NCBI GenBank assembly: GCA_964510085.1
Contig: CAZEAB010000001.1
Coordinates: 5,753-69,752 of the forward strand
DNA: 64,000 bases
Reading direction: 5' to 3'
From: an uncultured Methanosarcinales archaeon
Lineage (GTDB): Archaea > Nanobdellota > Nanobdellia > Woesearchaeales > GW2011-AR9
The notes under the pieces were generated by a model. That model was given only the letters and a program-made list of their open reading frames with translations. It made no database searches and was not told the origin of the DNA. The first letter of the stretch is position 1. Each line of letters begins with the position of its first letter. Both the position numbers and the translations under genes were made by a program. Below are positions 2-22,781 of the stretch, in pieces.

Positions 2-2425
2 GTATCGTTTTCATCCATCATAGGAAAAGAATCAAAGAGTGATGATAAAACAATCATTTCAACAAAAGCTAACACTCTTAAAACATTACAACCTCTTTTA
101 CACAAATCCAAAATTGAAACACCTTTCATTATTTCAACAAGTGAATGGAAAACACAAAAAGAATTGGTTATTGATAAAATTCATAAACAATTCGTAAGTC
201 AAAAGATTGTTGTACGGAGTTCTGCGGTTTCAGAAGATACAGAGAATTGCTCAATGGCAGGATATTTTGAAAGTGTTTTAAATATTGATTCTTCATCAAA
301 AGAAGAAATTGAAAAAAGTATTACTACTGTGTTTAATTCTTATAAAGAAAAAAATGCAAATAGCTCATTTAATCAAGTTCTTATTCAGAAACAAACAACC
401 AATTCTGTAATAAGTGGAGTTGTTTTTACAAGAACTCTAGAAAAAAATGCACCTTATTATGTTATTAATTATGATGATTCTACCGGAAGTACGGATTCCG
501 TAACTTCTGGGAAAGAGAATAAATCAATGATGATATTACATAATGCTTCAACAATTCCGGATTCGATGAAACCTCTTATTGAGTCAATAAAAGAAATTGA
601 AGATTTAATCCCATTCATGCCGTTAGATATTGAATTCTCAATTAATAGTGAGGGTGTTGTAACCATCTTTCAAGTAAGACCTCTTGCAACAAATAAAGGA
701 ATTGAGATTAAAGATGAAGAATTTTATGATTTAACAAAAGGGATTAATAGTAAAGTGAGAGACTTAATGCAACCTGTTTCACATTTACAAGGCCAGAGTA
801 ATATTCTTGCCGACATGCCTGATTGGAACCCGGCTGAGATTATTGGTGATAAACCAAACCTTTTAGATTATTCTTTATATGACTACATTATAACAAACAC
901 GGCTTGGCATGAGGCGCGAACGTCTCAAGGATATTATAATGTGGCTCCAGCAAAATTAGTTGAGAGAATTGGCAATAAACCGTTTGTAAATGTAAGAAAC
1001 ACATTCAATTCTTTTATTATTTCTTCTATTCCACAGGAGTTACATACAAAATTGGTTGAGTTTTCAATTAATAAGTTAAAGAATAACCCTCATCTTCAAG
1101 ATAAAGTTGAGTTTGAAATTCTATTTACTTGTTATGATCTTACTTTCAATCAACGAGCTGACGAATTACGAAAAAATGAGTTTTCTGAAGAAGAAATCTC
1201 TATTTTAAGAGAAAAACTTCATGAATTTACCAACAATACTATTCAAAAAAGTTCATCTTCTATTGTAAGAGACTTAAATGAAATTAAGAGTTTGGAAGAA
1301 ATAAGAATTTCTATAAATAATACAAATCTAAACACAATTGAAGAGAAAATACGTGCTGTTCAAACACTCCTTGACTCTTGCAAAGAAAAGGGAACAGTCC
1401 AATTTTCAAGGCTAGCTAGGTTAGGATTTATTGCTAAAACCCTTCTTCGAGGATTTGTTCATCAGAAGGTTATTTCTTCTGAAGAGTTTAATGTCATTTA
1501 TAATTCAATTAATACCGTTGCAACAGAAATAAGTGAAGATTTCAAGAAAATTGGAAGACAAGAAATTTCAAAAGATATGTTCCTTAAAAAATATGGGCAT
1601 CTCAGACCAGGAACGTATAATATAACCTCCCCGCGATATGATAAAAATCCAAATTTGTTAGCACAAAGTCAATGGGTGGGTGATAGAAGTAATAACAATC
1701 AACCAATACTTACTACGTTTGAAGAAAAGTTTGATAGAATCTTGAAAGAAGAGAAGTTTGCAATTTCCGGAAAGGAATTTATTGAATTTGTTCAGAAAGC
1801 AACAGAAGCAAGAGAGAAAGCAAAATTTGAGTTCACAAAAAACCTTAGTGATGCTTTAGAGCTACTTGCAGATGCAGGACATTCATTAGGATTTACAAGA
1901 GAAGAGATTTCTAAATTAGACATTAATGATATACTTGAATCGAAAGAAGTGTCTGCGGAGGAAATAATAACAAACTGGAAACAGTTAATTTCGGAAGAAG
2001 AGAAAAGACAAAAAATTGGTCATCTTATTGAACTTCCTTCTATCATCAAAGATGTTTCTTCATTAGAAACAATACAACATTACATTGCAAGACCAAATTA
2101 TATTACTCAGAAAAAGATTCATGGAAAAGCTATCAACATAACACAAATGGACAATAAGAACATTCCAGAAATTGAGGGGAACATAGTAGTGTTAGAGAAT
2201 GGAGATCCTGGATTTGATTGGATTTTTACTCGAAATCCGGCAGGGCTTATTACAAAATATGGGGGGATTGCATCACATATGTCTATTAGATGTGCAGAAT
2301 TTGGAATACCTGCAGCCATAGGTTGTGGGGAAACAATATTTAGCAAAATCAAAGATGCAGAAAAAATTTTATTAGATTGTAGTGAAAGGAAAATTATGAG
2401 AGATGAAAACATAAAATGTTTGTAG
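2..2425 (+). CDS. PEP-utilising / pyruvate-phosphate-dikinase-like phosphotransferase (candidate L-glutamine kinase, Cj1418-like); 5' end probably outside the window
   Basis: The frame is open from base 2, with no stop and no ATG before the TTG at 164. The upstream residues (..TKANTLKTLQPLL..) already resemble the start of a PPDK_N ATP-grasp domain. 'VVRSSAVSEDTENCSMAGYFES' nucleotide-binding motif; C-terminal swivelling phosphohistidine motif 'GGIASHMSIRCAEFGIPAAIGCG'. Confidence 0.8.
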   Translation, partial: VSFSSIIGKESKSDDKTIISTKANTLKTLQPLLHKSKIETPFIISTSEWKTQKELVIDKIHKQFVSQKIVVRSSAVSEDTENCSMAGYFESVLNIDSSSKEEIEKSITTVFNSYKEKNANSSFNQVLIQKQTTNSVISGVVFTRTLEKNAPYYVINYDDSTGSTDSVTSGKENKSMMILHNASTIPDSMKPLIESIKEIEDLIPFMPLDIEFSINSEGVVTIFQVRPLATNKGIEIKDEEFYDLTKGINSKVRDLMQPVSHLQGQSNILADMPDWNPAEIIGDKPNLLDYSLYDYIITNTAWHEARTSQGYYNVAPAKLVERIGNKPFVNVRNTFNSFIISSIPQELHTKLVEFSINKLKNNPHLQDKVEFEILFTCYDLTFNQRADELRKNEFSEEEISILREKLHEFTNNTIQKSSSSIVRDLNEIKSLEEIRISINNTNLNTIEEKIRAVQTLLDSCKEKGTVQFSRLARLGFIAKTLLRGFVHQKVISSEEFNVIYNSINTVATEISEDFKKIGRQEISKDMFLKKYGHLRPGTYNITSPRYDKNPNLLAQSQWVGDRSNNNQPILTTFEEKFDRILKEEKFAISGKEFIEFVQKATEAREKAKFEFTKNLSDALELLADAGHSLGFTREEISKLDINDILESKEVSAEEIITNWKQLISEEEKRQKIGHLIELPSIIKDVSSLETIQHYIARPNYITQKKIHGKAINITQMDNKNIPEIEGNIVVLENGDPGFDWIFTRNPAGLITKYGGIASHMSIRCAEFGIPAAIGCGETIFSKIKDAEKILLDCSERKIMRDENIKCL

Positions 2426-3075
2426 CAATCTCCTTACGGCAAGAAAAGAATAAACATGGCAATTCCGTAGATGTGCTTGAATCAGCCTACACCACATTCT
2501 TCAATAATATGGGGATTACATTAATTCCAATCCCTAACGATACTCAAAATGTGAAAAAACTTTTAGAATCAATTCCTATTAAGGGCATTATTCTTTCTGG
2601 TGGGAACGATATTAACCCGACATCCTTTGGAGAAGAAGTTCAAGAAGGTCTTTCGCTTTCACTGAGAAGAGATCTAGTTGAAACAGAATTATTAAACATT
2701 GCAATTGAAAAAAAGTTGCCGGTTCTTGGAATCTGTCGAGGTATGCAATTTATTAATACGTTTTTTGGAGGAAAAGTAACCGATTTGCGAAAAAGGTATT
2801 CCCACTTGCCTAGTAAAAATCATCAAATTACAATAACAGCAAAGCAAGACCTTTTTGGAACAGAATCTTCAGTAAATTCTTATCATAACTGGGGAATTAC
2901 TCAGACTGAATTAGCAGAACCTCTCAAGATATTTGCAAAAAATGGAGAGATTATAGAGGGAATTTATCATCCTACTCTCCCGATTATAGGAATTCAATGG
3001 CATCCTGAACGTACTAGCCCAGATGAAGAATTAAATAAGAAAATAATAAAGTTTATTGTCGAGCATAATGCTTAA
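2416..3075 (+). CDS. Peptidase C26 / class-I glutamine-amidotransferase-like gamma-glutamyl hydrolase (Cj1417-like candidate)
   Basis: Nucleophile-elbow motif 'GICRGMQFIN' and 'IQWHPE' His/Glu motif. The start overlaps the preceding stop by 10 nt. Confidence 0.8.
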   Translation: MFVAISLRQEKNKHGNSVDVLESAYTTFFNNMGITLIPIPNDTQNVKKLLESIPIKGIILSGGNDINPTSFGEEVQEGLSLSLRRDLVETELLNIAIEKKLPVLGICRGMQFINTFFGGKVTDLRKRYSHLPSKNHQITITAKQDLFGTESSVNSYHNWGITQTELAEPLKIFAKNGEIIEGIYHPTLPIIGIQWHPERTSPDEELNKKIIKFIVEHNA

Positions 3076-4005: not shown

Positions 4006-4791
4006 ATGAAAGCAATAATCCTTGCAGCAGGCATGGGAACTCGATTAGGGAAATACACTGAAAATCTTCCTAAATGTATGCTAAATTTTGCTGGAAAAAC
4101 TATTCTTGAAAGACAAGTGGAAACTCTTAGAAATGCTGGTATTACAGATATCACAATTGTAAAAGGATATATGCCAGAGGAAATAAATATTTTCGGAACA
4201 AAAACGTACATTAACAATGATTACAAGAATACAAACATGGTAGAAACACTTTTTTGTGCTGAGGAAGAGATGAATGAAGATATTCTTGTATGTTATGCCG
4301 ATATTATTTACGAACCAAAAGTGTTACAAAAAGTAATAGAAAGTACTGCAAAAGTTGGAGTTGTGGTTGACACAGATTATTGGGATTATTGGAGCGCAAG
4401 AGCTGACAATCCTGAAGAAGATATGGAGAGTCTTGTTATAGAAAACAACAAGATTATTGATCTTGGTAACACTACATGTTCAAAAGAAGAAGCAGAAGTG
4501 AGATATGTTGGATTAATTAAATTCTCTAAAGAGGGAATAGATGTATTAAAACGAGTATATCATGAGAATAAAGTAAGACATTTTCATGTAAATGAACCTT
4601 GGTTACGTTCAAAATCATTTAAGAAAGCATATATGACTTGTATGATACAAGCAATAATTAATTCTGGACAAGATGTAACACCAATCACTACTCAAAGAGG
4701 TTGGTTAGAGTTTGATACTGTTGAAGATTACGAAAGATATTCTTCTTGGAAAGAACAGAATACCTTAAATCGTTTTATTGGTGGTATTTAA
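4006..4791 (+). CDS. Nucleotidyltransferase (LicC / cytidylyltransferase-like; Cj1416-like candidate)
   Basis: N-terminal 'MKAIILAAGMGTRLG' NTP-transferase signature; about 260 aa, single domain. Confidence 0.8.
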   Translation: MKAIILAAGMGTRLGKYTENLPKCMLNFAGKTILERQVETLRNAGITDITIVKGYMPEEINIFGTKTYINNDYKNTNMVETLFCAEEEMNEDILVCYADIIYEPKVLQKVIESTAKVGVVVDTDYWDYWSARADNPEEDMESLVIENNKIIDLGNTTCSKEEAEVRYVGLIKFSKEGIDVLKRVYHENKVRHFHVNEPWLRSKSFKKAYMTCMIQAIINSGQDVTPITTQRGWLEFDTVEDYERYSSWKEQNTLNRFIGGI

Positions 4792-4877: not shown

Positions 4878-7124
4878 GTGGCGAAAAAAACTGAAATAAT
4901 TGTTACTCTTGGTCCATCAACTAATAAGGAAGAAGATCTTCGAAAATTAAAGGATAAAGGAGTAAATTTTGTAAGAGTCAATATGTCTCATTCTTCTTTA
5001 GAAGATATGGAGTATTTTATGAAATTAGCTAAAAAGGTAGGTATACCTTTTGTAGTTGATTCACAAGGATCACAAGTAAGAACAGGAGATTTAAAAGAAA
5101 ATCAAATTAAACTTCAAGAAAATGATGTTGTTAAGATATATACAACTGAAATTGTTGGAGATAAAGAAGGAATGTGTCTCAAACCTGTTTCAGTAGTTCC
5201 CCAATTAGAAATTGGAGACTTAATTCATATTGATTTTGATTCAGTCACATTAAGAATTTCTGATATTTCAACAATTAATGAAGGTTATATTATAGCAAGA
5301 ACTATTACTGGTGGAACTTTAGGGAAAAACAAAGCAATTATCGTTGATACCTCTTCTCAGAAACCAATTGTGTTACCAACATTGTCAGAGAAGGATTATG
5401 GTGCAATCCAACTTGGTTTGAAGTATGGTGTAGGACACATTGCAGCATCTTTTATGAGATCAGGGAAAGCTGTTGATGAAGTCAGAAACGCAACTCAGAA
5501 TACTATGAAGATTATTTCTAAAGTAGAATGCATAGATGGACTAGAAAATCTTAATGAAATAATTGATAGATCTGATTATTTACTTATTGATAGAGGTGAT
5601 TTAAGTAAAGAGATTCCTATTGAAAAAATTCCTTTTACTCAAAAAATTATTCTTAACAGAGCTAGAAAAAAAAATACTGGGGTATTTGTTGCTACAAATT
5701 TGTTAGAATCTATGACAAATAATAGAATGCCTACTAGAGCTGAAGTTCATGATGTCATTAATACAATTATTGATGGTGCTACTGGATTGGCCTTAGCTGG
5801 AGAAACAGCTATAGGAAAATATCCTTTATCTTGTGTAAATATGATTAACAAATTAATAAAACATGCACAACTAGCTATTGATGTTGATGAAATAAGAGAG
5901 AAAGAAGATGCATTTGTAAATAAATTGGAAGAGAATAATTATCTCTTAGATTTTAATATGTCTTCTTCGTTAATCCCACCTCATGGAGGTAAATTAGTAA
6001 GTCGGGTTGCGAAGAAAGAATATGACACCTCAAACATGCCTACAGTTGTTTTAGATGACAACAGACAGAGAGATGTTGAACAGATTGGTATTGGAACCTA
6101 TAGTCCTATTGAAGGTTTCATGAATAAAAATGCATTTCAATCTGTTGTAAATGACATGCGATTACCAAATGGATTGCCTTGGCCTTTACCGATATATTTA
6201 GACGTGCCTGAGAACAAAGCAGATGAATTATCAATTGGACAGGATGTTGCTTTGTTAGATCATTCTGGTAACACTATGGCTATACTTCATTTAAGTGAAA
6301 AATACACCATAGATAAAGAAGATACATACAACAAAATGTATGGGACTAATGACTCTTCGCACCCAGGTGTAAGGAATATTATGAACATACATCCGATTAT
6401 TCTTGGAGGAAAAGTAACTCTTCTTCAAAGAAAAAAGAATGAAAACAAAGAATATGAAATAACACCAAAACAATCAAGAAGATTATTTGAAGAGAGGGGT
6501 TGGTCAAAAGTTGTTGGTTTCCACACTCGAAATGTCATTCATAAAGGGCATGAATTTATTCAAATAAATGCAATGGAAGAGAACAATTGTGATGGGTTAT
6601 TTGTACATCCTGTTGTTGGGAAGAAGAAAACGGGAGATTTTAATGCAAAATATATCATCAAATCTTATGAATTGATGAATAAAAATCATTACCCTAAAAA
6701 TAGAGTTCTATTTGGAACGTTCTCTACATATTCTCGTTATGCAGGTCCAAGAGAAGCTCTTTTCACAGCACTTTGTCGTAAGAATTTTGGGTGTAGCCAT
6801 TTTATCGTTGGAAGAGACCACACGGGCGTAGGTAGTTTTTACCATCCAAAAGCATCACACAATATCTTTGATAGATTTCCAGATTTAGGAATTACTCCAG
6901 TTAAATTTGACAATGTATTTTATTCTGAGAAATCACAATCACATGTGCATGAAATGGATGACGACACTCATGAAGAAACAGAGAAATTACATGTAAGTGG
7001 AACTCAAGCTAGGAAAATGTTTGAATCTGGAGAAAAACCCCCTGAATGGTTCATGAGACCGGAGATTTCTGAGATGATAGTGGGTTATGTTAATAAAGGC
7101 GAAGAGGTCTTTGTAAAAGAATGA
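4878..7124 (+). CDS. Fusion protein: pyruvate-kinase barrel domain (N) + sulfate adenylyltransferase / ATP sulfurylase (C)
   Basis: N-terminal half has PK motifs: 'IVTLGPS', 'VRVNMSHSS', 'SQGSQVRTG', 'ISKVECIDGLENL', 'IDRGDLSKEIP', 'MPTRAEVHDV', 'AGETAIGKYP'. C-terminal half has ATP-sulfurylase motifs: 'GFHTRNVIHKGHEF', 'YAGPREALFTALCRKNFGCSHFIVGRDHTGVG'. GTG start. Confidence 0.85.
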   Translation: MAKKTEIIVTLGPSTNKEEDLRKLKDKGVNFVRVNMSHSSLEDMEYFMKLAKKVGIPFVVDSQGSQVRTGDLKENQIKLQENDVVKIYTTEIVGDKEGMCLKPVSVVPQLEIGDLIHIDFDSVTLRISDISTINEGYIIARTITGGTLGKNKAIIVDTSSQKPIVLPTLSEKDYGAIQLGLKYGVGHIAASFMRSGKAVDEVRNATQNTMKIISKVECIDGLENLNEIIDRSDYLLIDRGDLSKEIPIEKIPFTQKIILNRARKKNTGVFVATNLLESMTNNRMPTRAEVHDVINTIIDGATGLALAGETAIGKYPLSCVNMINKLIKHAQLAIDVDEIREKEDAFVNKLEENNYLLDFNMSSSLIPPHGGKLVSRVAKKEYDTSNMPTVVLDDNRQRDVEQIGIGTYSPIEGFMNKNAFQSVVNDMRLPNGLPWPLPIYLDVPENKADELSIGQDVALLDHSGNTMAILHLSEKYTIDKEDTYNKMYGTNDSSHPGVRNIMNIHPIILGGKVTLLQRKKNENKEYEITPKQSRRLFEERGWSKVVGFHTRNVIHKGHEFIQINAMEENNCDGLFVHPVVGKKKTGDFNAKYIIKSYELMNKNHYPKNRVLFGTFSTYSRYAGPREALFTALCRKNFGCSHFIVGRDHTGVGSFYHPKASHNIFDRFPDLGITPVKFDNVFYSEKSQSHVHEMDDDTHEETEKLHVSGTQARKMFESGEKPPEWFMRPEISEMIVGYVNKGEEVFVKE

Positions 7125-7639
7125 ATAATGGAAGAGTGTTGTGGTTTACCGGATTAAGTGGGTCTGGAAAGACCACTATCTCTTTAAAATTACGTGAAGA
7201 ACTTGAGAATAAAGGACATAGTGTTTCTATATTAGACGGAGACGTTCTTAGAGAAGAGTTTGAGGAAAAACTTGGTTTCTCTCGAGAAGACATTAAAAAA
7301 AATAATGAACGAATTTCTCAACTTGCTCGTAAACATGCAGAATCACATGATATAGTTCTTGTTCCAATTATTTCTCCGTATCAAGAAGATAGAAAGAATG
7401 CTAGAGATGTTATTGGTTCAAATTTTATGGAAGTGTTCATTAATTCATCACTTAACGAATGCATTAAAAGAGATGTTAAAGGACTTTACAAAAAAGCGTT
7501 AGGTGGGGAGATAGATAATTTTATTGGAATTGCTGAATCTAATCCCTACGAAATACCGCTTAATCCTGAAATTGAAGTGACAACAGAAGGAAAAGAAGTT
7601 GAAGAAAGTGTTCAAGATATACTAAAAAGATTATCTTAG
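7121..7639 (+). CDS. cysC: Adenylylsulfate (APS) kinase family protein
   Basis: P-loop 'WFTGLSGSGKTTIS', 'LDGD' and 'ISPY' motifs; 4-nt ATGA overlap with the sulfurylase fusion. The family also includes the cytidine diphosphoramidate kinase Cj1415. Confidence 0.85.
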   Translation: MNNGRVLWFTGLSGSGKTTISLKLREELENKGHSVSILDGDVLREEFEEKLGFSREDIKKNNERISQLARKHAESHDIVLVPIISPYQEDRKNARDVIGSNFMEVFINSSLNECIKRDVKGLYKKALGGEIDNFIGIAESNPYEIPLNPEIEVTTEGKEVEESVQDILKRLS

Positions 7640-8707: not shown

Positions 8708-8788
8708 AAATTAGTGTTATTCCGGATGAAGCCTGAATTGAAGATAAAGATACATAACATTTAAAAGAGAAAATGTTAAAGCAAACTG

Positions 8789-9601
8789 ATGATGAATTGG
8801 AAAGAGCTAAAGTATGCATTTAGGGTGTACACACCAAAAAGTATCCTTTTTAACATGGCTTCAATAATTACAAGTGATTTTGTAATTGTATCCTTTCAAA
8901 AATGTGGAAAAACATGGGTACGAGTTATGCTTTCAAAGATTCTTCAGGAAAAATATAACATTAAGAATATTAAACTAAATCTTCAAGAAATGACTTGGTT
9001 TACAAAAGCACCAAACATTCTTATCTCTCATGGCGGAAGTACAAAAGATAATAATAAAATTAAGTTTGAGAAAATATTTAGAAACAAGAAAAAAATTCTT
9101 CTTTGTAGAGATCCACGAGATATTGTAGTTTCATTATTTCATGGTTCTAGAACTAGAGATAAAGTATATGATGGTGACAATATCTCTACATTTATACGAG
9201 ACCCTGCATGTGGTTTTCCAAAAATTATTGCCTTTATGAACAAATGGGCAGAAGAATATCAAAAAAGACCACAAGATTTTATTAGAGTAAGATATGAAGA
9301 TCTCAAAATTGATACAAAAAGTGAATTACAAAAAATGACACAATTTATGGGTATTAACGCGTCAGAAGAACTCTTACATAAAACGGTAGAGTTTGGTTCC
9401 TTTCAGAATATGAGAAAAATGGAAATGAAAGAAGAAATTAATGATTATAGAATGAAATCAGGGGACAAAAATGATCCAAACTCATTCAGAACACGTAAAG
9501 GAAAAGTAGGAGGATATAAGGACGAACTTTCACAAGAAGATCAAGATTATATTAATAATCAAGTGAAAGAAAACCTTGACAGATTTTATGGATATCACTA
9601 A
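8789..9601 (+). CDS. Sulfotransferase-fold protein (PAPS-dependent family)
   Basis: 5'-phosphosulfate-binding loop 'QKCGKTWVRVMLS' (PKSGTTW-like) and 3'-phosphate-binding 'RDPRDIVVSLFH' motif. Confidence 0.8.
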   Translation: MMNWKELKYAFRVYTPKSILFNMASIITSDFVIVSFQKCGKTWVRVMLSKILQEKYNIKNIKLNLQEMTWFTKAPNILISHGGSTKDNNKIKFEKIFRNKKKILLCRDPRDIVVSLFHGSRTRDKVYDGDNISTFIRDPACGFPKIIAFMNKWAEEYQKRPQDFIRVRYEDLKIDTKSELQKMTQFMGINASEELLHKTVEFGSFQNMRKMEMKEEINDYRMKSGDKNDPNSFRTRKGKVGGYKDELSQEDQDYINNQVKENLDRFYGYH

Positions 9602-9615
9602 ATTTTAAAGCCAGA

Positions 9616-11067
9616 TTATTTTTTACTTACTACGTTCGCATTTTTATTAAATATGCTCAGCAAGGTCTTTTTGTCTTCAGATGAAATCTCTTTAATCAAA
9701 AACAATATTCCAAAGTAAAGAATTAAGTAGAGAGCCATTCCAAGAATTACATTATTTAAACTAAAATAATGAGACATAATACCTATAATAACGCAGCTAA
9801 ACAATATATTTCTCAAAGATTTTTGTGGGATTATTCTTCCAAAGAAACGATAGATTACAACAATTGAAATTAAAAGACTGATTAAAGATCCAATTAACAA
9901 AGAAATTCCTGCTCCAATCATCCCTTGCATTGGAATTATAGTATAACTTATCAACACGGTAAAGATTAGAGACACTATGGATATTTTCATTGCTGTTCCT
10001 GGTTTTCCCACCGCAATAAAAAATGAGGCAAAAACCATAACGACAGAAAAAATAAAAAATGCCAAAACTAAGTAAGGAAGTACAGAAGATGCTGGCTGGA
10101 ATACATTAGAATAAAGCAATTCTATTATTGATTTTGAGTTTGTTATAGTAAGAATCACAAACGGTGCTAAAACAAGAAACATATAACGAAAAGATTTTTT
10201 AATATATTTTCTAACTAAGGGCATGTTTTTTGCTTCAAATGCGCTAGAGATAGAAGGGATCATAGTAAATACCAATGCTGAAGCAAGAGTAAAACTTACT
10301 CTTGCTAACGTCGTTGCTGAAGTATAATACCCAATAAGTGCATCATCTACCCAATAATGTTTTAAGAGGAACAATGGAATTTCCAGATTAACTGTGTTGA
10401 AAACATAAAATAAAGAAATAGGTACAGAGAAAAGAAACAGTTTTTTAGTATTTAATGCTAGCGGAGATTTATTCCTTCTAATTCTAAATATATAATATAT
10501 GGCTACAATCGTAGCTAGTAAAGGACCTAAAGCATATCCTGTTAATGCGCCAAGTATCCCATATCCAAAGTAAACTAGTAAAAGAGCAATAATTAATTTC
10601 ATTATAGAATGAAATGCTTCTAATAATGCTTGAGTTCTAAACCTTCTCTTACCTCCAAGATAACCCTTAGTAATAACTACATATGCACTCAAAGGTATCA
10701 AAATAAATGAAGAATAAAACATATTATTTGTTAAACTTGGGTCATTGAAATATCCACTTAACAAACCAGAAAAAAGATAGTAAAGAGCGATACAGATTGC
10801 TGTTAAGATGAACTGTAAATGTAAACCTGATTTCAGAATACCAACATCATTCCATTTTCCTTCTGAAACATATTTTGATACCGACCTGTTTACTCCTGTA
10901 GCAAAAATTGTCTTTGCGATTAGAAAAAAAGATAGTATTAAACCAAAATCACCATAAATAGAAGGCCCCATTAACCTTGCTAAGGCTATATGTACCCCAT
11001 AACCAGATAAAGAGGTTACAAACTGTGCAAGCATAAGAAAAAAAGTACCCCTAACAACAACCCCCAT
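9616..11067 (-). CDS. Polysaccharide/oligosaccharide flippase (MOP/Wzx-like)
   Basis: 483 aa, about 12-14 hydrophobic segments, typical Wzx-like N-terminus; lies in the glycan operon. Confidence 0.7.
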   Translation of the reverse strand: MGVVVRGTFFLMLAQFVTSLSGYGVHIALARLMGPSIYGDFGLILSFFLIAKTIFATGVNRSVSKYVSEGKWNDVGILKSGLHLQFILTAICIALYYLFSGLLSGYFNDPSLTNNMFYSSFILIPLSAYVVITKGYLGGKRRFRTQALLEAFHSIMKLIIALLLVYFGYGILGALTGYALGPLLATIVAIYYIFRIRRNKSPLALNTKKLFLFSVPISLFYVFNTVNLEIPLFLLKHYWVDDALIGYYTSATTLARVSFTLASALVFTMIPSISSAFEAKNMPLVRKYIKKSFRYMFLVLAPFVILTITNSKSIIELLYSNVFQPASSVLPYLVLAFFIFSVVMVFASFFIAVGKPGTAMKISIVSLIFTVLISYTIIPMQGMIGAGISLLIGSLISLLISIVVIYRFFGRIIPQKSLRNILFSCVIIGIMSHYFSLNNVILGMALYLILYFGILFLIKEISSEDKKTLLSIFNKNANVVSKK

Positions 11068-12433: not shown

Positions 12434-12965
12434 TTTTTTTACATATAAATAAAAGGTTATTTGCAAAATAGTGTCTAAAAATATTGTTAATAAAATTTTT
12501 TGACTTACGCATCCCCTTAAATTTTTTTATAATTCTATAATTATAACATGAAATTAAATAACTTAATGTATGCTCACAATACCAACAGGTGTGAAATTTA
12601 TTACATTTAAACGGGAGATAGCCAATTGATCTTGCATTTGGAGTTACAATAACCAATAACCCATCTTTTTTTAGATGACGAGACATATTTTCTAAGAATT
12701 TCCCTGGGTTGTGGATATGTTCAATTACATCTCCTGCAATAATAACATCAAATCTTTTTTTAAATGAAATGTTCTCTGCATTTCCTTTAATAATCTCTGG
12801 AGAGTTGCTTTCAATATCAACACCAACTACAGAATTTGCTCTCATTTTTATTTTTGAGTACAATGTCTTTGGTTTTATCAATGAGCCTTGCTCAGCACAA
12901 CTTCCAATATCTAAAACATTTTTTCCTTTTACAATATTTAGTATATAGTCTTCACAACTTTTCAT
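12426..12965 (-). CDS. Class-I SAM-dependent methyltransferase
   Basis: 'VLDIGSC' motif I-like, 'VIIAGDVIEHIHNP' motif, 'GLLVIVTPN'. Confidence 0.7.
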   Translation of the reverse strand: MKSCEDYILNIVKGKNVLDIGSCAEQGSLIKPKTLYSKIKMRANSVVGVDIESNSPEIIKGNAENISFKKRFDVIIAGDVIEHIHNPGKFLENMSRHLKKDGLLVIVTPNARSIGYLPFKCNKFHTCWYCEHTLSYLISCYNYRIIKKFKGMRKSKNFINNIFRHYFANNLLFICKKND

Positions 12966-14676
12966 TTTGTTGCCTCCAATATCCTAATTTTTGTGTAAAA
13001 AAACTTAACCCCAATAGAGGAATCATAATAAATAATTTAGGACTTCTCCAATATTTTTTAATCATATTTTTCGTACTCCACACACGGAGTTTGTAAAATG
13101 AACCAAGTGAACTTACATGTTGTTTAAAAAAATAACTTCCCCTCCCCCGTGTGTAATGCCAGTGTAAGAACGTCTTTAAATCTTTTCTGGGTTTATGATA
13201 CATAATCATTTGTGAGTTATATTTTATTTTAAGTCCATTTTCAAGAACTTTCATTGAAAGATATACATCATCCCCTGTAATTGTTAATTTCTCATTAAAC
13301 GCACCAAAACCAAGGATTGTTTCCTTTTTGAAAGCACAATTACCACCGGCTAAATGGTCTGTGTAACCTTCTTTACTAACATGCCACATATTTTCAAAAC
13401 CAAGATGGGCACCCCCAGGATATCCTAATCCAGAGATACAATCCCCAAGAAATGTTGAATGAGGTATTTTGGTATTTCCCGTAACAACAGTTTCTCCTTT
13501 TGTGTGTATTTGATTGTAAATTTCCTCAACCCAATTTGGTGATGCATAACAATCCGCATCAATAATTGCAACAATGTCTGCTTTGGAATTTGTAATTCCT
13601 ACATTTCTCGCTGCTGATAATCCTTGATGTTCCATGTCAATGACACGAGCTCCGTTCTTTCTTGCTATCTCTGCAGTCGCATCGGTAGAACCATCATTAG
13701 CTACTACAATTTCAAAGTCTGTAAATGATTGTTTTTTAAGAGAATCAAAAATTTTTTGTATACAACTTGCTGCATTATATGCACAAATTACTACTGAAAC
13801 CTTTGGTCGTTGCATACTAACTATTGTTTTCTGTAACCCTTGTTGTAACGTTGTTGTTGGCTTCCAATCTAGTTCTTTACTAATTTTTTCAATAGAGAAT
13901 ACACTTCTTTCTATGTCTCCTTCACGTTCTTCTTCATGCTTTGGTTTTATTTTAGTTCCAATGTTTGATTGAATTTTGTTAAATAGTTCTACTATGGTTA
14001 TTTCTTCTCCAGAGCCTACATTATATTGCCCCTCTCCCTTTTCTAAAGCCAAGACTATTACTCTCACAACATCACTTACATACACAAAATCCCTTGTTTG
14101 ATTCCCAGAACCAAAAATAAGAGGTGTTTTATTCTGTAACAACGCATGTGTAAATATTGCGACAACGCCACCCTCTCCAGAAAAATCCTGACCAGGACCA
14201 TAAACATTAGCTAAACGAAGTGAGATGTATGGAACCGTTGACTTTTTAAGTAATTGATAAAACTTATTTTTATTTGTACCATAAGGAGATACTGGATTAC
14301 ACGGATGTTCTTCATTTATAGGAAACTGGTATGGTTGACCAATTTCAGCTGCTGTATTTGTATAAATAAATTTCTTTACATTATATTTTTCTGCTAATCT
14401 TAACACATTAAGACTTCCTTCAAGATTTGTCTTTCTATCAAAATCTGGGTCTAATACTGAATTTGGAACACTTGTTTGAGCTGCAAGATGTATTACAGAA
14501 TCTACAGGAAATAGTCTTTCAATTTCTGGTGAGATTATGTCTTGAATAAAATATTTTGCTCTTTTATTATTACCTGTAAATAAATCTACTACTATTACCT
14601 CATGACCTTGCTGAACTAACTTGTTAACTACATGAGTTCCAATAAACCCGGCTCCTCCGGTTACAAGGATTCTCAT
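12952..14676 (-). CDS. Fusion: NAD-dependent nucleotide-sugar epimerase/dehydratase (N) + family-2 glycosyltransferase (C)
   Basis: 'MRILVTGGAGFIGTH' Rossmann motif, 'YGTNK' YxxxK; the C-terminal half has 'VSVVICAYNAA..', 'VANDGSTD', 'IIDADCY' GT2 motifs. Confidence 0.85.
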   Translation of the reverse strand: MRILVTGGAGFIGTHVVNKLVQQGHEVIVVDLFTGNNKRAKYFIQDIISPEIERLFPVDSVIHLAAQTSVPNSVLDPDFDRKTNLEGSLNVLRLAEKYNVKKFIYTNTAAEIGQPYQFPINEEHPCNPVSPYGTNKNKFYQLLKKSTVPYISLRLANVYGPGQDFSGEGGVVAIFTHALLQNKTPLIFGSGNQTRDFVYVSDVVRVIVLALEKGEGQYNVGSGEEITIVELFNKIQSNIGTKIKPKHEEEREGDIERSVFSIEKISKELDWKPTTTLQQGLQKTIVSMQRPKVSVVICAYNAASCIQKIFDSLKKQSFTDFEIVVANDGSTDATAEIARKNGARVIDMEHQGLSAARNVGITNSKADIVAIIDADCYASPNWVEEIYNQIHTKGETVVTGNTKIPHSTFLGDCISGLGYPGGAHLGFENMWHVSKEGYTDHLAGGNCAFKKETILGFGAFNEKLTITGDDVYLSMKVLENGLKIKYNSQMIMYHKPRKDLKTFLHWHYTRGRGSYFFKQHVSSLGSFYKLRVWSTKNMIKKYWRSPKLFIMIPLLGLSFFTQKLGYWRQQNEKL

Positions 14677-16001: not shown

Positions 16002-16739
16002 TTATTCTTCCAAATACTCTATTTCTTCCTCAGAAACTCGTCTCACGGGCTTCTCAAACTTCAGTTCTTCATATGCCTGTGCTACTAATCCTGGAGTTCT
16101 TCCTATAATAAAAATACCTTTACCTAAAAGAGGGTCAAATCCCCAGTCAGATAATAAAATGGCAATTAATCCATCAACATTCATGTGAATTTTCTTACCC
16201 TTAACTTCTTCAAATGCTTGCTCTATTGCATCTTTGAAATGCAGATTCTGAGATGCATATCCTATTTCATTCATGGTTTTTAACAGCCATTGAACTCGAG
16301 GATCTCCTTGTTTGTAATGTTTATGACCAATCCCATAAATAACTTCACGATTGGTTAACATTTCTTTAAATTTTGATAATAGTTCATCTTTTGATACATC
16401 TTTAAGGGACGCAATCATCTTCATAGCATTTTCCATAGCACCACCATGATAATTTCCAATGCTTAATATCCCACCACCTACAGCTGTATTAAGTGAATTT
16501 CCACCAGAAGCTACAAATCGTGTAGCCATGCTTGAAGTCGTACCCATTCCATGATCAATAACACATGTAAGAATTTTTTCAAATAAGATACTCTCCTTTT
16601 CATTCGGCTTCCTTCCAGATAACTCTAAGAAAACTGCGTCTGTAAACCTACCTTGAATTAAACTAGACAATTTCTCTCCTCGAATGTCTACATCATTCTC
16701 TTCTATCTTTGATATTCTTGTTTTAAATTGCATTTTCAA
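16002..16739 (-). CDS. Citrate-synthase-fold protein of the citryl-CoA lyase / ATP-citrate-lyase C-terminal type
   Basis: 'HGGAMENA', 'GIGHKHYKQGDPRV', 'NVDGLIAILL', 'GRTPGLVAQAYEE'. At 245 aa it is shorter than a true citrate synthase. Confidence 0.65.
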   Translation of the reverse strand: MKMQFKTRISKIEENDVDIRGEKLSSLIQGRFTDAVFLELSGRKPNEKESILFEKILTCVIDHGMGTTSSMATRFVASGGNSLNTAVGGGILSIGNYHGGAMENAMKMIASLKDVSKDELLSKFKEMLTNREVIYGIGHKHYKQGDPRVQWLLKTMNEIGYASQNLHFKDAIEQAFEEVKGKKIHMNVDGLIAILLSDWGFDPLLGKGIFIIGRTPGLVAQAYEELKFEKPVRRVSEEEIEYLEE

Positions 16740-17619
16740 GCGCTTCTTTCATTAACTTACCAACATTGTGATGTACTTCTGCTATAATAACCCCTGCTTC
16801 TTTAAGAAGTTTTACTTTATTTTTTCGAGTTCCTTTATCTCCCTCAATAATAGCGCCAGCATGTCCCAAGGAAACATTATGAATTTTATACTTCTCAACA
16901 AATACTCCTGAGATAAAAGCCACAATAGGTTTTGTAAATTTTTTCTTCATCAAATACGCTGCAAGTTCTTCTTCAGCAGTTCCACCAATTTCCCCAAATA
17001 AAACTATCCCTTTCGTTTCTGGATCTTGTTCAAATTCATCCATTAATTCAGCAAACGTTGTTCCCATAATAATATCTGCACCAATCCCTAATACAGTAGA
17101 TTGTCCTAACCCTGCTTGTTTCAAAACAAGTGATGTTTCACACGCCATTCCACCACTTCGTGAAATCACTCCAATTGAACCAGGAGTAAACGCAATCTTT
17201 GACTTCCCACCTGCAATGGCACCACATTTTGATTTTCCAACGGAATAAATACCAACAGATGTTGCACCAATAATCCTACTTTCTTTCTGCTCTGCTAATG
17301 CAAAACAATATGCCATATCATGAACTGGAATATTTTCAGTAATAATATTAATTAACTTGATACCTGCTTCAATTGCTTCAACAATTGCCCCTTTTGCAAA
17401 TTTTGGTGGTACTAAAATAACTGTTGCATCAACTTCTGGAGCTTCTGAAATACTGTTAAATACAGGAACACCAAACACTTCCTGCCCACCTTTCCCGGGG
17501 GTTACTCCTGCAATAACCTTTGAACCTGCTTGTAACATCTCATCGCACGTTCTCTGTCCTTGCTTTCCAGTAATTCCCTGAATAAGGAATCTTGTATTTT
17601 CATTAATCAGTATTGCCAT
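16723..17619 (-). CDS. Succinyl-CoA synthetase alpha / citryl-CoA synthetase small-subunit-like (CoA-binding, phosphohistidine)
   Basis: 'FLIQGITGKQG', 'GVTPGKGG', 'SRSGGMA', and the phosphohistidine loop 'LGHAGAII'. Confidence 0.8.
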   Translation of the reverse strand: MAILINENTRFLIQGITGKQGQRTCDEMLQAGSKVIAGVTPGKGGQEVFGVPVFNSISEAPEVDATVILVPPKFAKGAIVEAIEAGIKLINIITENIPVHDMAYCFALAEQKESRIIGATSVGIYSVGKSKCGAIAGGKSKIAFTPGSIGVISRSGGMACETSLVLKQAGLGQSTVLGIGADIIMGTTFAELMDEFEQDPETKGIVLFGEIGGTAEEELAAYLMKKKFTKPIVAFISGVFVEKYKIHNVSLGHAGAIIEGDKGTRKNKVKLLKEAGVIIAEVHHNVGKLMKEALENAI

Positions 17620-19579
17620 AATTAATCCCTTTATAGTTCTTATATTTTTTTATTATTTCACTATGAATAAAGCCATTTGTTACAACTATACCATTTTTAT
17701 GAGATACATCTTTTGTATTGTACAATAATTCATTGCCTTCTAAATCAGTTATCATACCTCCTGCTTCTGTAATTATAATAGATGAAGCAGCAGTATCCCA
17801 TTGATTCATTTTATCAGTAGTTGTTAAATATAATTCGGCATCTCCTTCTGAAACTGCAATTACCTTAACGCTACTCCCTTTTGGACTCCATTCCTTAAGG
17901 GATAAATTTTGAAAAAATTGTTTTTCATATTCTATTAAATGACTTCTACTAACAACGGCTTTAGAATCAGATATGTCATTTATATCGCTAACCTTAAGAT
18001 GCCTCCATCTTCCATCTTTATATTGATATGCCCCCTTACCTTTTTGTGCTACACAAATACGATTTACAGCCGGTTGATATATTACTCCTAGAAAACACCT
18101 TCCTTCCTCAATTAGTCCAATCATAATAGTAAATTCATCATTCTTTTTTATAAAATCAGAAGTGCCATCAAGAGGATCAATTATCCAAATTCTACTATGA
18201 TTTAATCTATTTCCGTCATCCTTTATTTCTTCTGAAAGAATGGGGTAATTTGTTTTAGAGAGATGATTTATTAATATGGTGTTACTAGCAATGTCCGCTT
18301 CAGTTAAAGGTTCTTTTTTATCCTTGTAGGACACAGAAAATCCTTCATGGTATATCTTCATCATTGCATTACCTGCTTCTAAAGCTGCATCTACTGCAAT
18401 AGATGCTTCGGCAGATAATTGAGGCATTTCTGAATTTATTTTATAATTGTTTGATAATTCTACCATTTCTTTTGCTGTTTCTGTTAATGGAGTTTTATCA
18501 TCAAAGTAATGTATATCTAATCCGTGCTCTTCTTTTGCTTTCATCATAGCGTCTCGAGCTTTTTCCCATTCAACTCCAACTCTTCTTATTAAAATTGGAA
18601 ACGTAGGTTTCTTTTCAATTAAGACATTCAGAACCCCTTGTAATGTTTCATAAATATTAGTGAAATTAGCAACAACTCCTGCAACCAGTAAACCTTTTAA
18701 TCCTTCTTTCTCTAATACAATTCTTGTTAACTTTTCAACTTTCTCTTGGGGAGGATTTCCACTATATTCAGTTAAATTTGCTGGTTTACCCCCAAATTCT
18801 ATTAACGCATCCATCAAAGTCATAGTAGCGCCACCACCAGATGTAAGAATTGCAATATCACCATCCAAATCAATAAATGTCTTACCAGCAACACCTCTAT
18901 GATCATCTTTATCAATTAATCTCGCTCTAATTTCTCTATCTGTTGCTTTTCTATTATCAGTTCTTTCTTCAAATGGAATCTTCCATCGATGTTTTGCATC
19001 ATCATCTAATACAACAACTGCATCAACAGCAATGTACGAATTGTGAGATTGTACTAATGGGTTTATTTCAATCATACGACAATCATTCTCAATAAAACAA
19101 GTGTATAGTTTCTTCATCAATTCAATTAATTGAGGGTTCTCTGTTGGAAATTCTGTTAGACCTTTCAAATAATCAATTTCAATAGTCTTAATCTTACCTG
19201 TTTCACGAAGTTCTTCAATATCCACTCCACCTTCTTCACTAAAAATAAGAACTGGTTTTCGTGTACTGGTATCAAACATCATTCCTAAATACAGTTCATT
19301 TTCAATATTGATTTTTTCGTCGAGAAGTATTTCGGAGATTTCTTCGTTAAGAAAAGTATTTCCTAAGAATTGTTCTGCAACATGTTTTGCTTGTCCTTTG
19401 CTTGATACAGGGATTATTCCTCCAGCTTTTCCCCTACCACCAGCAAGAGTTTGCACTTTGAGGATTTTTTCTTCTGAGAATTCTGATATTTCAGAACTGT
19501 TTTTTATTAATATTCCCTTACTTATTGGAATACCTGCTGAAGAAATAACTTGTTTTGATTCAAATTCCTTTAGTTTCAT
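17603..19579 (-). CDS. Fusion: SucC / citryl-CoA synthetase large-subunit-like ATP-grasp (N) + CysQ/inositol-monophosphatase-family 3'(2'),5'-bisphosphate nucleotidase domain (C)
   Basis: N-terminal half: 'MKLKEFESKQ', 'QTLAGGRGKAGG', 'TSGGGATMTLMDAL..GGKPANLTEYSG'. C-terminal 260 aa: 'LSEE', 'WIIDPLDGTSDF', 'WDTAASSIIITEAGG' IMPase/CysQ metal-binding motifs. Confidence 0.8.
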   Translation of the reverse strand: MKLKEFESKQVISSAGIPISKGILIKNSSEISEFSEEKILKVQTLAGGRGKAGGIIPVSSKGQAKHVAEQFLGNTFLNEEISEILLDEKINIENELYLGMMFDTSTRKPVLIFSEEGGVDIEELRETGKIKTIEIDYLKGLTEFPTENPQLIELMKKLYTCFIENDCRMIEINPLVQSHNSYIAVDAVVVLDDDAKHRWKIPFEERTDNRKATDREIRARLIDKDDHRGVAGKTFIDLDGDIAILTSGGGATMTLMDALIEFGGKPANLTEYSGNPPQEKVEKLTRIVLEKEGLKGLLVAGVVANFTNIYETLQGVLNVLIEKKPTFPILIRRVGVEWEKARDAMMKAKEEHGLDIHYFDDKTPLTETAKEMVELSNNYKINSEMPQLSAEASIAVDAALEAGNAMMKIYHEGFSVSYKDKKEPLTEADIASNTILINHLSKTNYPILSEEIKDDGNRLNHSRIWIIDPLDGTSDFIKKNDEFTIMIGLIEEGRCFLGVIYQPAVNRICVAQKGKGAYQYKDGRWRHLKVSDINDISDSKAVVSRSHLIEYEKQFFQNLSLKEWSPKGSSVKVIAVSEGDAELYLTTTDKMNQWDTAASSIIITEAGGMITDLEGNELLYNTKDVSHKNGIVVTNGFIHSEIIKKYKNYKGINYGNTD

Positions 19580-21335: not shown

Positions 21336-22781
21336 ATGGTTGATACAGCAATTATCTTAGCAGGTGGATTAGGTACAAGACTTAGACCGTTAACAAATAC
21401 TATTCCAAAACCTTTAGTTCCCATTTTAGGAAAACCACTTCTTCATCATATCATTACCAATCTAAAAAAACATAATGTAAAAAACATTATTCTCTCAATC
21501 GGATATAAGGCAGACATAATCCAAAATTATTTCGGAGATGGTTCTCAACTTGGTGTAAACATTTCTTATTGTGTTGAAAACGAACCATTAGGAACAGGAG
21601 GAGCTATTAAAGAAGCTGCTAAGAATCTAACAGAACCGTTCATCGCATTAAATGGGGATAACCTCTCTGATTTTAATTATACAGAATTAATACAGCAACA
21701 CAAAGAGAATCAAACCCCTATCACATTAACCCTATTTCCAGTAGAAGATGTAACTCAATTTGGTATTGCCGATCTCAACAACAACATCATCAAACAATTT
21801 ATTGAAAAACCAACCGTTGAAGAAGCTCCAACTAATTTAAACAACGCGGGAGGATACATAATTCATCCGGAGGCGCTCAAGATTCTCCCAGAAGGAAAAT
21901 CCTCAATAGAAAGAGATTGTTTTGAGAAACTTGCTCTAGAAGGAAAGTTAGGAGCATATACACATGAAAGCCAATGGTTCCCTACAGATAATATGGAACG
22001 ATACAGGAAGGCGTGTGAAGAGTTTACTCCAAATATAAACCTAAATAACAAAAGGGTAATAATTGCAGATGTTGATGAAACTATCTGTGAAACATGTCAA
22101 GAAATTTCTCCAGAAATGGCAAGTACAATTAATTCGTTGATACAAAAAGGATATCAGTTTGCATTTATTTCTGGAACAGGTGTAGGAGAATTACAACGAA
22201 TGTTATCTTCAAAATTACACCAAGAACACCACATTCTTGGTACTACAGGAACAAATTACACCCACATGAGATATAATCTAGGAAATGAAAAATATAATTA
22301 TTCTTTCACAGTAGAAGAAAAAGAAGAAATAATTACTGCATTCAATAAATTAATTTCCCACTTTAAGATAGAATCTATGACAACTAAAGAGGACCAATTA
22401 CAAGATAGAGATTCACAAATTACTTTGTCTGCTATTGGAAGAAAAGCGCCAATTGAACTAAAGAAACAATATGATCCTGATGGGAATAAACGCCAAGTAT
22501 GGGCGGAGTTTATGAGATGTGAACTAGGAGAAGACAAATATGATTTTAAAATTGGTGGAACAACATCATTAGATGTTACAAAGAAAGGGTTAGATAAAGA
22601 ATGGGGCATAAAGAAATTTGCAGAACACCATAACATTCCACTAAATTCTATATTATTCTTTGGAGATAAGATATATCCTGGAGGCAACGATTTCCCTGCT
22701 TCAAAAATAGTAGATTGTGTTTCTGTAAAATCTCCACAAGATACTTTAAAACATTTACAGCAATTAGACAATATGGATTAA
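21336..22781 (+). CDS. Fusion: sugar-1-phosphate (mannose-1-P-type) nucleotidyltransferase (N) + HAD-type phosphomannomutase-like domain (C)
   Basis: 'AIILAGGLGTRLRPLTNTIPKPLVPI'. C-terminal half: 'IIADVDETI' (DxDxT), 'GGTTSLDVTKKGLDK', 'FFGDKIYPGGNDFP', resembling eukaryote-type PMM. Confidence 0.8.
   Translation: MVDTAIILAGGLGTRLRPLTNTIPKPLVPILGKPLLHHIITNLKKHNVKNIILSIGYKADIIQNYFGDGSQLGVNISYCVENEPLGTGGAIKEAAKNLTEPFIALNGDNLSDFNYTELIQQHKENQTPITLTLFPVEDVTQFGIADLNNNIIKQFIEKPTVEEAPTNLNNAGGYIIHPEALKILPEGKSSIERDCFEKLALEGKLGAYTHESQWFPTDNMERYRKACEEFTPNINLNNKRVIIADVDETICETCQEISPEMASTINSLIQKGYQFAFISGTGVGELQRMLSSKLHQEHHILGTTGTNYTHMRYNLGNEKYNYSFTVEEKEEIITAFNKLISHFKIESMTTKEDQLQDRDSQITLSAIGRKAPIELKKQYDPDGNKRQVWAEFMRCELGEDKYDFKIGGTTSLDVTKKGLDKEWGIKKFAEHHNIPLNSILFFGDKIYPGGNDFPASKIVDCVSVKSPQDTLKHLQQLDNMD

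Follow-up and report, generated by a model that had tools for sequence, protein, structure and literature searches.

A pyruvate kinase core fused to ATP sulfurylase recurs in archaeal and bacterial sulfation loci and is a candidate ATP-regenerating domain for PAPS synthesis

Why would a pyruvate kinase (PK) barrel be carried in the same polypeptide as an ATP sulfurylase (ATPS), and what would it do there? This question is raised by a gene in contig CAZEAB010000001.1 of GenBank assembly GCA_964510085.1, deposited as an uncultured Methanosarcinales archaeon and placed by GTDB in the Woesearchaeales; the stretch of 64,000 nucleotides that was analysed (positions 5,753 to 69,752 of the forward strand) is referred to here as the window. 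The 748-aa product joins a PK core to an ATPS and is followed immediately by an adenosine 5'-phosphosulfate (APS) kinase. The architecture recurs in many archaeal and bacterial lineages, and the residues of the PK active site are conserved in it. We conclude, from sequence comparison, that the PK domain is probably a dedicated phosphoenolpyruvate (PEP):ADP phosphotransferase, which recycles the ADP released by APS kinase and so relieves ADP·APS dead-end inhibition during the synthesis of 3'-phosphoadenosine 5'-phosphosulfate (PAPS). The gene, its parts and the APS kinase gene are located in the window as follows.

4878..7124, + strand: PK–ATPS fusion gene, 748 aa (PK A+B core, linker, PUA_2, ATP sulfurylase)
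4884..5837, + strand: PK barrel (A domain) with inserted B/lid domain, aa 3-320 (PF00224)
5838..5972, + strand: end of the A domain and linker helix (DSSP on the AlphaFold2 model; conserved columns)
5973..7082, + strand: homo-oligomeric-type ATP sulfurylase (PUA_2, aa 366-518; catalytic domain, aa 525-735)
7121..7639, + strand: APS kinase, 172 aa (PF01583, 173 bits; TIGR00455, 184.9 against a cutoff of 138.7; P-loop GLSGSGKTT)

Architecture and catalytic residues of the fusion protein

The fusion gene starts with GTG, about 10 nt downstream of a Shine-Dalgarno-like GAGGAG motif. The first-pass annotation, made from the sequence alone, had described its 748-aa open reading frame (ORF) as a PK barrel followed by an ATPS; Pfam and the translation agree with this description, and all the motifs quoted in its support (NMSHSS, SKVE, DRGDL, MPTRAE, GETAIGKYP, TRNVIHKGH, and GRDHTG) are present. 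The PF00224 match on aa 3-320 reached 240.7 bits and covered profile positions 2-328 of 328, and in the AlphaFold2 (AF2) model of the protein (mean pLDDT 90.7, pTM 0.88) the PK half superposed on Escherichia coli PykF with a root-mean-square deviation of ~3.1-3.4 Å over ~347 columns. Both the Pfam match and the model indicate that the B/lid domain is kept. The regulatory C-terminal domain of PK is absent, as had also been claimed: PK_C (PF02887) had no Pfam match in the fusion protein, where PUA_2 begins at aa 366 instead, and a PK_C query against the whole window gave no match. The barrel and PUA_2 are connected by a helix-containing linker of ~45 residues, whose helix (aa 336-352, DSSP on the AF2 model) is situated where the PK C-domain would begin. 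Among the linker columns of the fusion family, Y355 is invariant, and L350 and L356 are conserved in at least 90%.

The other half was assigned to PF14306 (PUA_2, 158.7 bits) and PF01747 (263.1 bits) and scored above the curated NCBIfam cutoffs of NF003166 (439.1 against 387) and TIGR00339 (364.3 against 322.95). Its nearest solved structure was 8a8d, the ATPS of M. thermolithotrophicus (E 1e-97), on which the ATPS half of the AF2 model gave a TM-score of 0.92 (normalised to the target); a solved structure spanning both halves was absent from the structural matches to the model. The active-site motifs xTRNxxHxxH and GRDHxG are invariant in the family and correspond to HTRNVIHKGH and GRDHTG in our protein. 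At aa 549 (6522..6524) the motif reads HTRN and not the usual QTRN, whose Gln we take to contact the sulfate group in yeast ATPS. Among 110 fused proteins, 78 have a His at this position, as do 14 of the 35 unfused relatives, the latter set including the reversed-order and full-length-PK fusions described below, whose ATPS halves are also of the His type. No inorganic pyrophosphatase domain was found among the Pfam matches of the fusion protein. The APS kinase next to it, correctly recognised in the first-pass annotation, begins at an ATG that overlaps the TGA of the fusion gene by 4 nt (ATGA at 7121-7124, read directly from the sequence); being a separate ORF, it does not place ATPS and APS kinase in the same chain as in a bifunctional PAPS synthase.

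The residues of the PK half were evaluated by aligning the query with E. coli PykF and Geobacillus stearothermophilus PK, and their conservation was determined in a divergent set of 55 full-length fusions, in which the PK half shares 33-60% identity with the query. With the PykF equivalents given in brackets, the invariant or nearly invariant positions in these 55 proteins are R33 (R32), N35 (N34), S37 (S36), H38 (H37), D61 (D66), R68 (R73), K215 (K220), E217 (E222), D241 (D246), E289 (E294), and E309 (E314). Additionally, K152 (K156) is K or R, T273 (T278) is T in 52 fusions and S in the other three, and S62 of the query aligns with PykF T67. The conserved positions include the K+ ligands, both Mg2+ ligands, the catalytic Lys, and the proton-donor Thr, as well as the Arg and Lys residues that hold the phosphates of PEP and of the nucleotide. 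Every catalytic PK residue is kept in the comparison with the two canonical enzymes and across the fusions.

This conservation bears directly on the idea that the PK half has no catalytic function and serves regulation or oligomerisation, for example as a sensor of PEP or ADP. There is a precedent for such a domain in fungal ATPS, which carries a degenerate APS-kinase-like C-terminal domain (PMC2275785), and the loss of the PK C-domain alters oligomer interfaces. However, pseudoenzymes normally lose their catalytic residues, and in the fusions the catalytic Lys and both Mg2+ ligands are invariant, and the Thr is T or S, down to 33% identity; by contrast, the stand-alone PK relative P0254 shows decay of the catalytic site. 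Median identity to the query among the 55 fusions is 40% in the PK half and likewise 40% in the ATPS half, so the PK half evolves no faster than its partner and appears to be under the same constraint. A purely regulatory function is therefore very unlikely.

The fusion family also bears a private PK signature, in which DTKGPEIR is replaced by DTEG[AS]Q[IV]R, ARGDLG by DRGDLS, ATQML by ATNLL, and SGETA by AAETA. As far as can be judged from the sequences, this signature marks a specialised paralogue and not a series of housekeeping PKs that were fused over and over.

Recurrence of the fusion and its link to APS kinase

A word-indexed search yielded more than 120 clusters at 59-75% identity, all composed of PK, PUA_2, and ATPS. 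From an exhaustive search covering 1.84 billion representatives of 50%-identity clusters, the best 150 matches were then evaluated, of which ~110 contained both the PK and the ATPS domain, with identities to the query down to ~32%. When one genome per GTDB species was scanned, relatives were found in 309 species; the best 80 of these 309 align across the PK and ATPS halves, and their loci, examined with 10-kb flanks, are the basis of the locus counts given here. PK and ATPS lie in one uninterrupted frame in all 80 loci, each from a different GTDB species and together covering GC contents of 0.27-0.67. The junction is thus free of stops and frameshifts, and an artefact of assembly or frameshift at this point was ruled out.

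The hosts are named here after database record titles, some of which, particularly third-party assemblies titled "uncultured X", may be unreliable. The archaeal hosts belong to DPANN (Woesearchaeota, Pacearchaeota, and Nanoarchaeia), and the protein of the window is nearest to Woesearchaeota-type sequences. The bacterial hosts comprise many lineages of the Candidate Phyla Radiation (CPR)/Patescibacteria and Chloroflexota, including a 10.4-Mb Ardenticatenaceae contig, as well as NC10, Acidobacteriota, Acidimicrobiia, Omnitrophota, Latescibacterota (3.8 Mb), Myxococcota, Planctomycetales, Elusimicrobia, and others. The first-pass annotation had explained the fusion by a weak energy metabolism of its host. 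This rationale is unsupported, since the fusion extends to genomes that reach at least 10 Mb, among them those of the Chloroflexota, Latescibacterota, Acidobacteriota, and Myxococcota just mentioned; the taxonomic spread likewise led us to reject the notion that the fusion is specific to energy-poor symbionts.

Of the 80 loci, 24 carry the APS kinase as an in-frame extension of the ATPS, 27 have it downstream on the same strand (15 of these at a distance of no more than 40 bp), and 4 have it upstream of the fusion. A related form without the ATPS domain, in which PK is joined to APS kinase (P0198, P0274), was found in five contigs from different samples, and its genes are situated among those for sulfotransferases, glycosyltransferases, and epimerases. 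This form shows the PK domain staying beside the predicted ADP-producing step even where the chain contains no ATPS. The reversed order, ATPS–PK, is represented by P0189, a single 90% cluster with four members; a dedicated search returned no cluster beyond it, and reversed order was therefore rejected as a common form and, rare as it is, is kept as support. Finally, a full-length PK including PK_C precedes the ATPS in P0142, known from a single contig. The PK domains of P0189 and P0142 read DLPG[KP]KIR where the main family has DTEG[AS]QxR and thus belong to a different PK lineage. This speaks for at least two fusion events; the PK–ATPS combination apparently arose repeatedly.

These distributions also have to be considered when asking whether the PK half could simply be the housekeeping glycolytic PK of its host, which happens to be fused and whose activity is kinetically uncoupled from that of ATPS. 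In favour of this are the intact catalytic residues, the reduced genomes of DPANN and CPR organisms, and the annotation pipelines (JGI names) that already count the fusion genes as "pyruvate kinase"; a hidden Markov model search of the six-frame translation also revealed no other PK in the window, although 64 kb is too little to settle this. On the other hand, the same private-signature family is present in the large genomes of Chloroflexota, Latescibacterota, Acidobacteriota, and Myxococcota, which presumably have a PK of their own. Moreover, the regulatory C-domain is gone, the gene is always located in sulfation or glycan clusters and in many cases is joined to APS kinase too, and the PK–APS kinase and reversed-order proteins are hard to account for without functional coupling. 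A housekeeping PK that was fused fortuitously thus seems quite unlikely.

Some loci carry further additions. In P0021, an NTP-transferase is fused in frame at the N-terminal side of PK–ATPS. A domain of the Phosphodiest/alkaline-phosphatase superfamily precedes PK–ATPS in P0158 and follows the ATPS in P0260, and in locus L001 a Sulfatase/Phosphodiest gene (8748..10004) overlaps the start of the fusion gene; hydrolysis of pyrophosphate (PPi) or of 3'-phosphoadenosine 5'-phosphate (PAP) are possible roles for these additions. In five loci of Chloroflexota and NC10 (L020, L022, L031, L032, and L033), a more distant second ATPS-like segment followed by an APS kinase adjoins the PK–ATPS gene, so two sulfate-activation systems may exist side by side in these organisms.

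Proposed role in PAPS synthesis

According to the mechanism that we propose, the C-terminal half would function as an ordinary Sat-type ATPS, converting sulfate and ATP into APS and PPi, while the N-terminal half would be a catalytically competent PK core devoid of the allosteric and tetramerisation C-domain. Joined by the APS kinase, to which it is translationally coupled, the fusion would constitute a PAPS-synthesis module: APS kinase would produce PAPS and ADP from APS and ATP, and the PK domain would convert this ADP and PEP into ATP and pyruvate. With ADP kept low at the enzyme, APS kinase would be spared the enzyme·ADP·APS dead-end complex by which such kinases are slowed, and a pathway with little driving force of its own would gain the free energy of PEP, giving the net reaction sulfate + ATP + PEP -> PAPS + PPi + pyruvate. 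The release of one ADP per PAPS fits the one-to-one fusion and the translational coupling. The loss of the C-domain would remove both tetramerisation and the allostery exerted by sugar phosphates and AMP, as might be expected of a module that operates outside glycolytic flux control.

The biochemical rationale comes from enzymes studied elsewhere. Inhibition through the enzyme·ADP·APS dead-end complex is characteristic of APS kinases (PMC3734648), and because of this complex the PAPS yield of human PAPSS1 in vitro is close to nil when ADP is not removed by a PK/PEP regeneration system (PMC9885120); the natural fusion thus appears to mirror what enzymologists add by hand. The first-pass annotation had pointed to the unfavourable adenylylation of sulfate and had suggested that PEP-dependent regeneration of ATP could pull PAPS synthesis. 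The regeneration part of this suggestion is the reading best supported by the conserved residues, the linkage to APS kinase, and the behaviour of PAPSS1 (PMC9885120), and it should be understood as a prediction. The thermodynamic pull would act mainly on the APS-kinase step, through ADP removal, and not on adenylylation itself. We consider it about an even chance that the fusion represents a built-in, covalent ATP-regeneration module for which a PK core was recruited, apparently more than once, with PEP replacing the second ATP and ADP being recycled in situ, possibly by direct hand-over between APS kinase and PK.

Several observations weigh against ADP recycling by the PK domain. All NCBIfam PK models remained below their cutoffs for the fusion protein (TIGR01064, 284.2 against 306.4), and APS kinase was not seen in 25 of the 80 loci, 5 of which offered less than 1.8 kb of downstream sequence. 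The full-length PK–ATPS form of P0142, which bears on repeated fusion, is a singleton to which we give low weight. In addition, the fusion family departs from near-universal PK motifs at several positions lining the active site, so its cation dependence or acceptor specificity may differ from those of a standard PK. This last point would also suit an active phosphotransferase with a changed acceptor or donor, a changed cation requirement, or a side reaction such as the decarboxylation of oxaloacetate. The family-specific replacements, presumably K114E, P116A/S, E117Q, Q328N, S361A, and G362A in the numbering of rabbit PK, affect near-universal positions adjoining the K+/nucleotide site, and the genes of an oxaloacetate-yielding citryl-CoA synthetase/lyase lie in the same neighbourhood. 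Nevertheless, the residues that bind the PEP phosphate, Mg2+, K+, and the nucleotide phosphates are kept (PykF R32, R73, K156, K220, E222, D246, and T278), as is the B/lid domain, and the tight link to the sole ADP-producing step makes ADP the simplest acceptor. A changed reaction is therefore unlikely, and the recycling of ADP from APS kinase is the reading that we prefer.

Multi-domain sulfate-activating enzymes are known, and the comparison with them indicates what the PK–ATPS fusion shares and where it differs. Bifunctional PAPS synthases (metazoan PAPSS1/2 and Aquifex aeolicus Sat/CysC, 2gks) likewise join sulfate-activation enzymes in one chain, their ATPS halves are homologous to that of the fusion, and the 24 loci with an in-frame APS kinase resemble them further; the described forms, in contrast, have no PK domain, and the APS kinase of the window is separate and translationally coupled. 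Canonical PKs (E. coli PykF, 1pky; G. stearothermophilus PK, 2e28) share the A-barrel and B-lid fold and the catalytic, Mg2+, and K+ ligands. They differ in possessing the C-domain, whereas the fusion family has its private motifs, falls below the NCBIfam PK cutoffs, and occurs in sulfation clusters. The GTPase-coupled ATPS CysD/CysN also recruits a second nucleotide-dependent activity against the energetics of sulfate activation; however, CysD (PAPS-reductase-like) and CysN (an EF-Tu-like GTPase) are unrelated to PK–ATPS, and their coupling is conformational and does not involve substrate regeneration.

The fusions of ATPS with pyrophosphatase (PPase) in stramenopiles provide an established precedent for a "pulling" enzyme fused to ATPS (PMC2275785). 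In these ATPS–PPase proteins, and in the APS kinase–ATPS–PPase proteins of stramenopiles and haptophytes (PMC2275785, PMC3734648), an enzyme that clears a by-product, and so drives an unfavourable pathway, is attached to ATPS, as would be the case in our fusion. The PPase clears the PPi of adenylylation, whereas PK–ATPS would clear the ADP of the kinase step and regenerate ATP from PEP; the accessory domain belongs to another family, and the hosts of PK–ATPS are prokaryotic. Engineered systems for PAPS synthesis with PK/PEP (PMC9885120) combine the same three activities, ATPS, APS kinase, and PK, against the ADP·APS dead-end complex. They are, however, artificial mixtures of separate enzymes, while PK–ATPS is genetically fused, widespread in nature, and known from sequence.

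Sulfation neighbourhood and significance

The genes surrounding the fusion indicate where the PAPS would be used. Three features of the neighbourhood are relevant here.

4006..4791, + strand: NTP-transferase directly upstream of the fusion (PF12804, PF00483)
8789..9601, + strand: PAPS-dependent sulfotransferase, 270 aa (PF00685, 92.8 bits)
17639..18406, - strand: CysQ-like PAP phosphatase domain, aa 392-647 of a 658-aa ORF (PF00459, 170 bits)

PAPS would be delivered to the neighbouring sulfotransferase within a cluster for surface glycans and lipids, and the resulting PAP would be removed by the CysQ-like phosphatase. The sulfotransferase at 8789..9601 is the likely consumer; its KCGKTW and RDPRDIVVS segments resemble what we take to be the 5'-phosphosulfate and 3'-phosphate binding motifs of sulfotransferases. 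The CysQ-like domain matched the 3'(2'),5'-bisphosphate nucleotidase model TIGR01331 on aa 396-634 with 196.7 bits, under the cutoff of 228.8. A stand-alone CysQ homologue adjoins the fusion gene in 16 of the 80 loci and is located downstream of its stop in 15 of them. The NTP-transferase is conserved upstream of the fusion in related loci of the Woesearchaeota type. The glycan/lipid island of the window also encodes a Wzx-type flippase, a CDP-alcohol phosphatidyltransferase, a methyltransferase, an epimerase–glycosyltransferase family 2 (GT2) fusion, and a UDP-glucose dehydrogenase, and related loci, including L001-L003 and L084, contain sulfotransferases, sulfatase/Phosphodiest proteins, glycosyltransferases, and epimerases. 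The fusion locus is a PAPS-donor module for sulfation and is neither a sulfate-reduction nor a glycolysis locus.

Other genes of the window were noted. The ORF that bears the CysQ-like domain (17603..19579, - strand) begins with a domain resembling the beta subunit of succinyl-/citryl-CoA synthetase (aa 1-376), and the genes after it encode a CoA-ligase alpha-like protein and a citryl-CoA lyase (16723..17619 and 16002..16739, both on the - strand); the ORF constitutes a second fusion of a central-metabolism enzyme with one of the sulfation pathway, ~10 kb from PK–ATPS. At 164..2425 (+ strand), a 753-aa protein of the uncharacterised PRK05849 family (800 bits) combines a PPDK_N ATP-grasp fragment with a C-terminal swivel domain of PEP-utilizers, a layout similar to that of rifampicin phosphotransferase. 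This "PEP-utilising" protein was rejected as a source of PEP, as it has no PEP/pyruvate barrel and belongs to the PRK05849 family. Together with a C26 amidotransferase (2416..3075), it shares the locus of the fusion in L007, L008, L011, L013, L016, and L060; the pair is upstream of the fusion in five of these six loci and is joined by the NTP-transferase in five, the exception being L011.

Further multidomain proteins include a 475-aa product (26228..27655, - strand) with a CDP-alcohol phosphatidyltransferase, a diacylglycerol-kinase catalytic domain, and YegS_C, a 481-aa NTP-transferase joined to a phosphomannomutase-like haloacid dehalogenase-type domain (21336..22781, + strand), and a 574-aa NAD-dependent epimerase/dehydratase joined to a GT2 glycosyltransferase (12952..14676, - strand). 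Four consecutive, tightly packed ORFs of 541, 412, 432, and 453 aa (34359..39872, + strand) gave no Pfam match at E <= 1e-5. The window itself, with ~33% GC, is archaeal; its genes include those for a thermosome, a Cbf5-type pseudouridine synthase, HerA, and a presenilin-type peptidase.

Regarding novelty, full-text literature searches on PK, ATP sulfurylase, and sulfation terms returned no description of a PK–ATPS fusion. The first-pass annotation had called the architecture undescribed, which holds for the literature searched, while hundreds of database entries already carry it, named only "sulfate adenylyltransferase" (NCBI) or "pyruvate kinase" (JGI). The NCBI name arises because the ATPS half exceeds the NCBIfam cutoffs and the PK models do not reach theirs. 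What is new beside the known multi-domain enzymes is the fusion of a PK core, undescribed in the searched literature and widespread.

If the proposed role is correct, the fusion would represent a new evolutionary answer to the energetics of PAPS synthesis and to ADP/APS inhibition, beside PPase fusion and GTPase coupling, and its PK domain would be the first glycolytic kinase described to have been domesticated as a dedicated cofactor-recycling unit within a biosynthetic enzyme. The fusion would also offer a ready-made single-chain PK–ATPS–APS kinase catalyst for PAPS, which is today assembled from separate enzymes. For genome interpretation, many "pyruvate kinase" and "Sat" calls in DPANN and CPR organisms would correspond to one sulfation gene. 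For example, in a study of hydrothermal-vent DPANN (PMC8091004), PYK was taken as a mark of substrate-level phosphorylation in glycolysis and Sat as one of sulfur dissimilation. The fusion is carried by the Pacearchaeota genome DPANNHV_H1.bin.39 (locus L035, JAAOYK010000067.1), whose isolate name matches the published DPANN-HV set of metagenome-assembled genomes, and in genomes such as this one the PYK and Sat marks may both derive from one sulfation gene. In DPANN and CPR organisms, the fusion may thus be miscounted as a gain of glycolytic ATP or as dissimilatory sulfur metabolism, where its genomic context suggests the sulfation of surface glycans.

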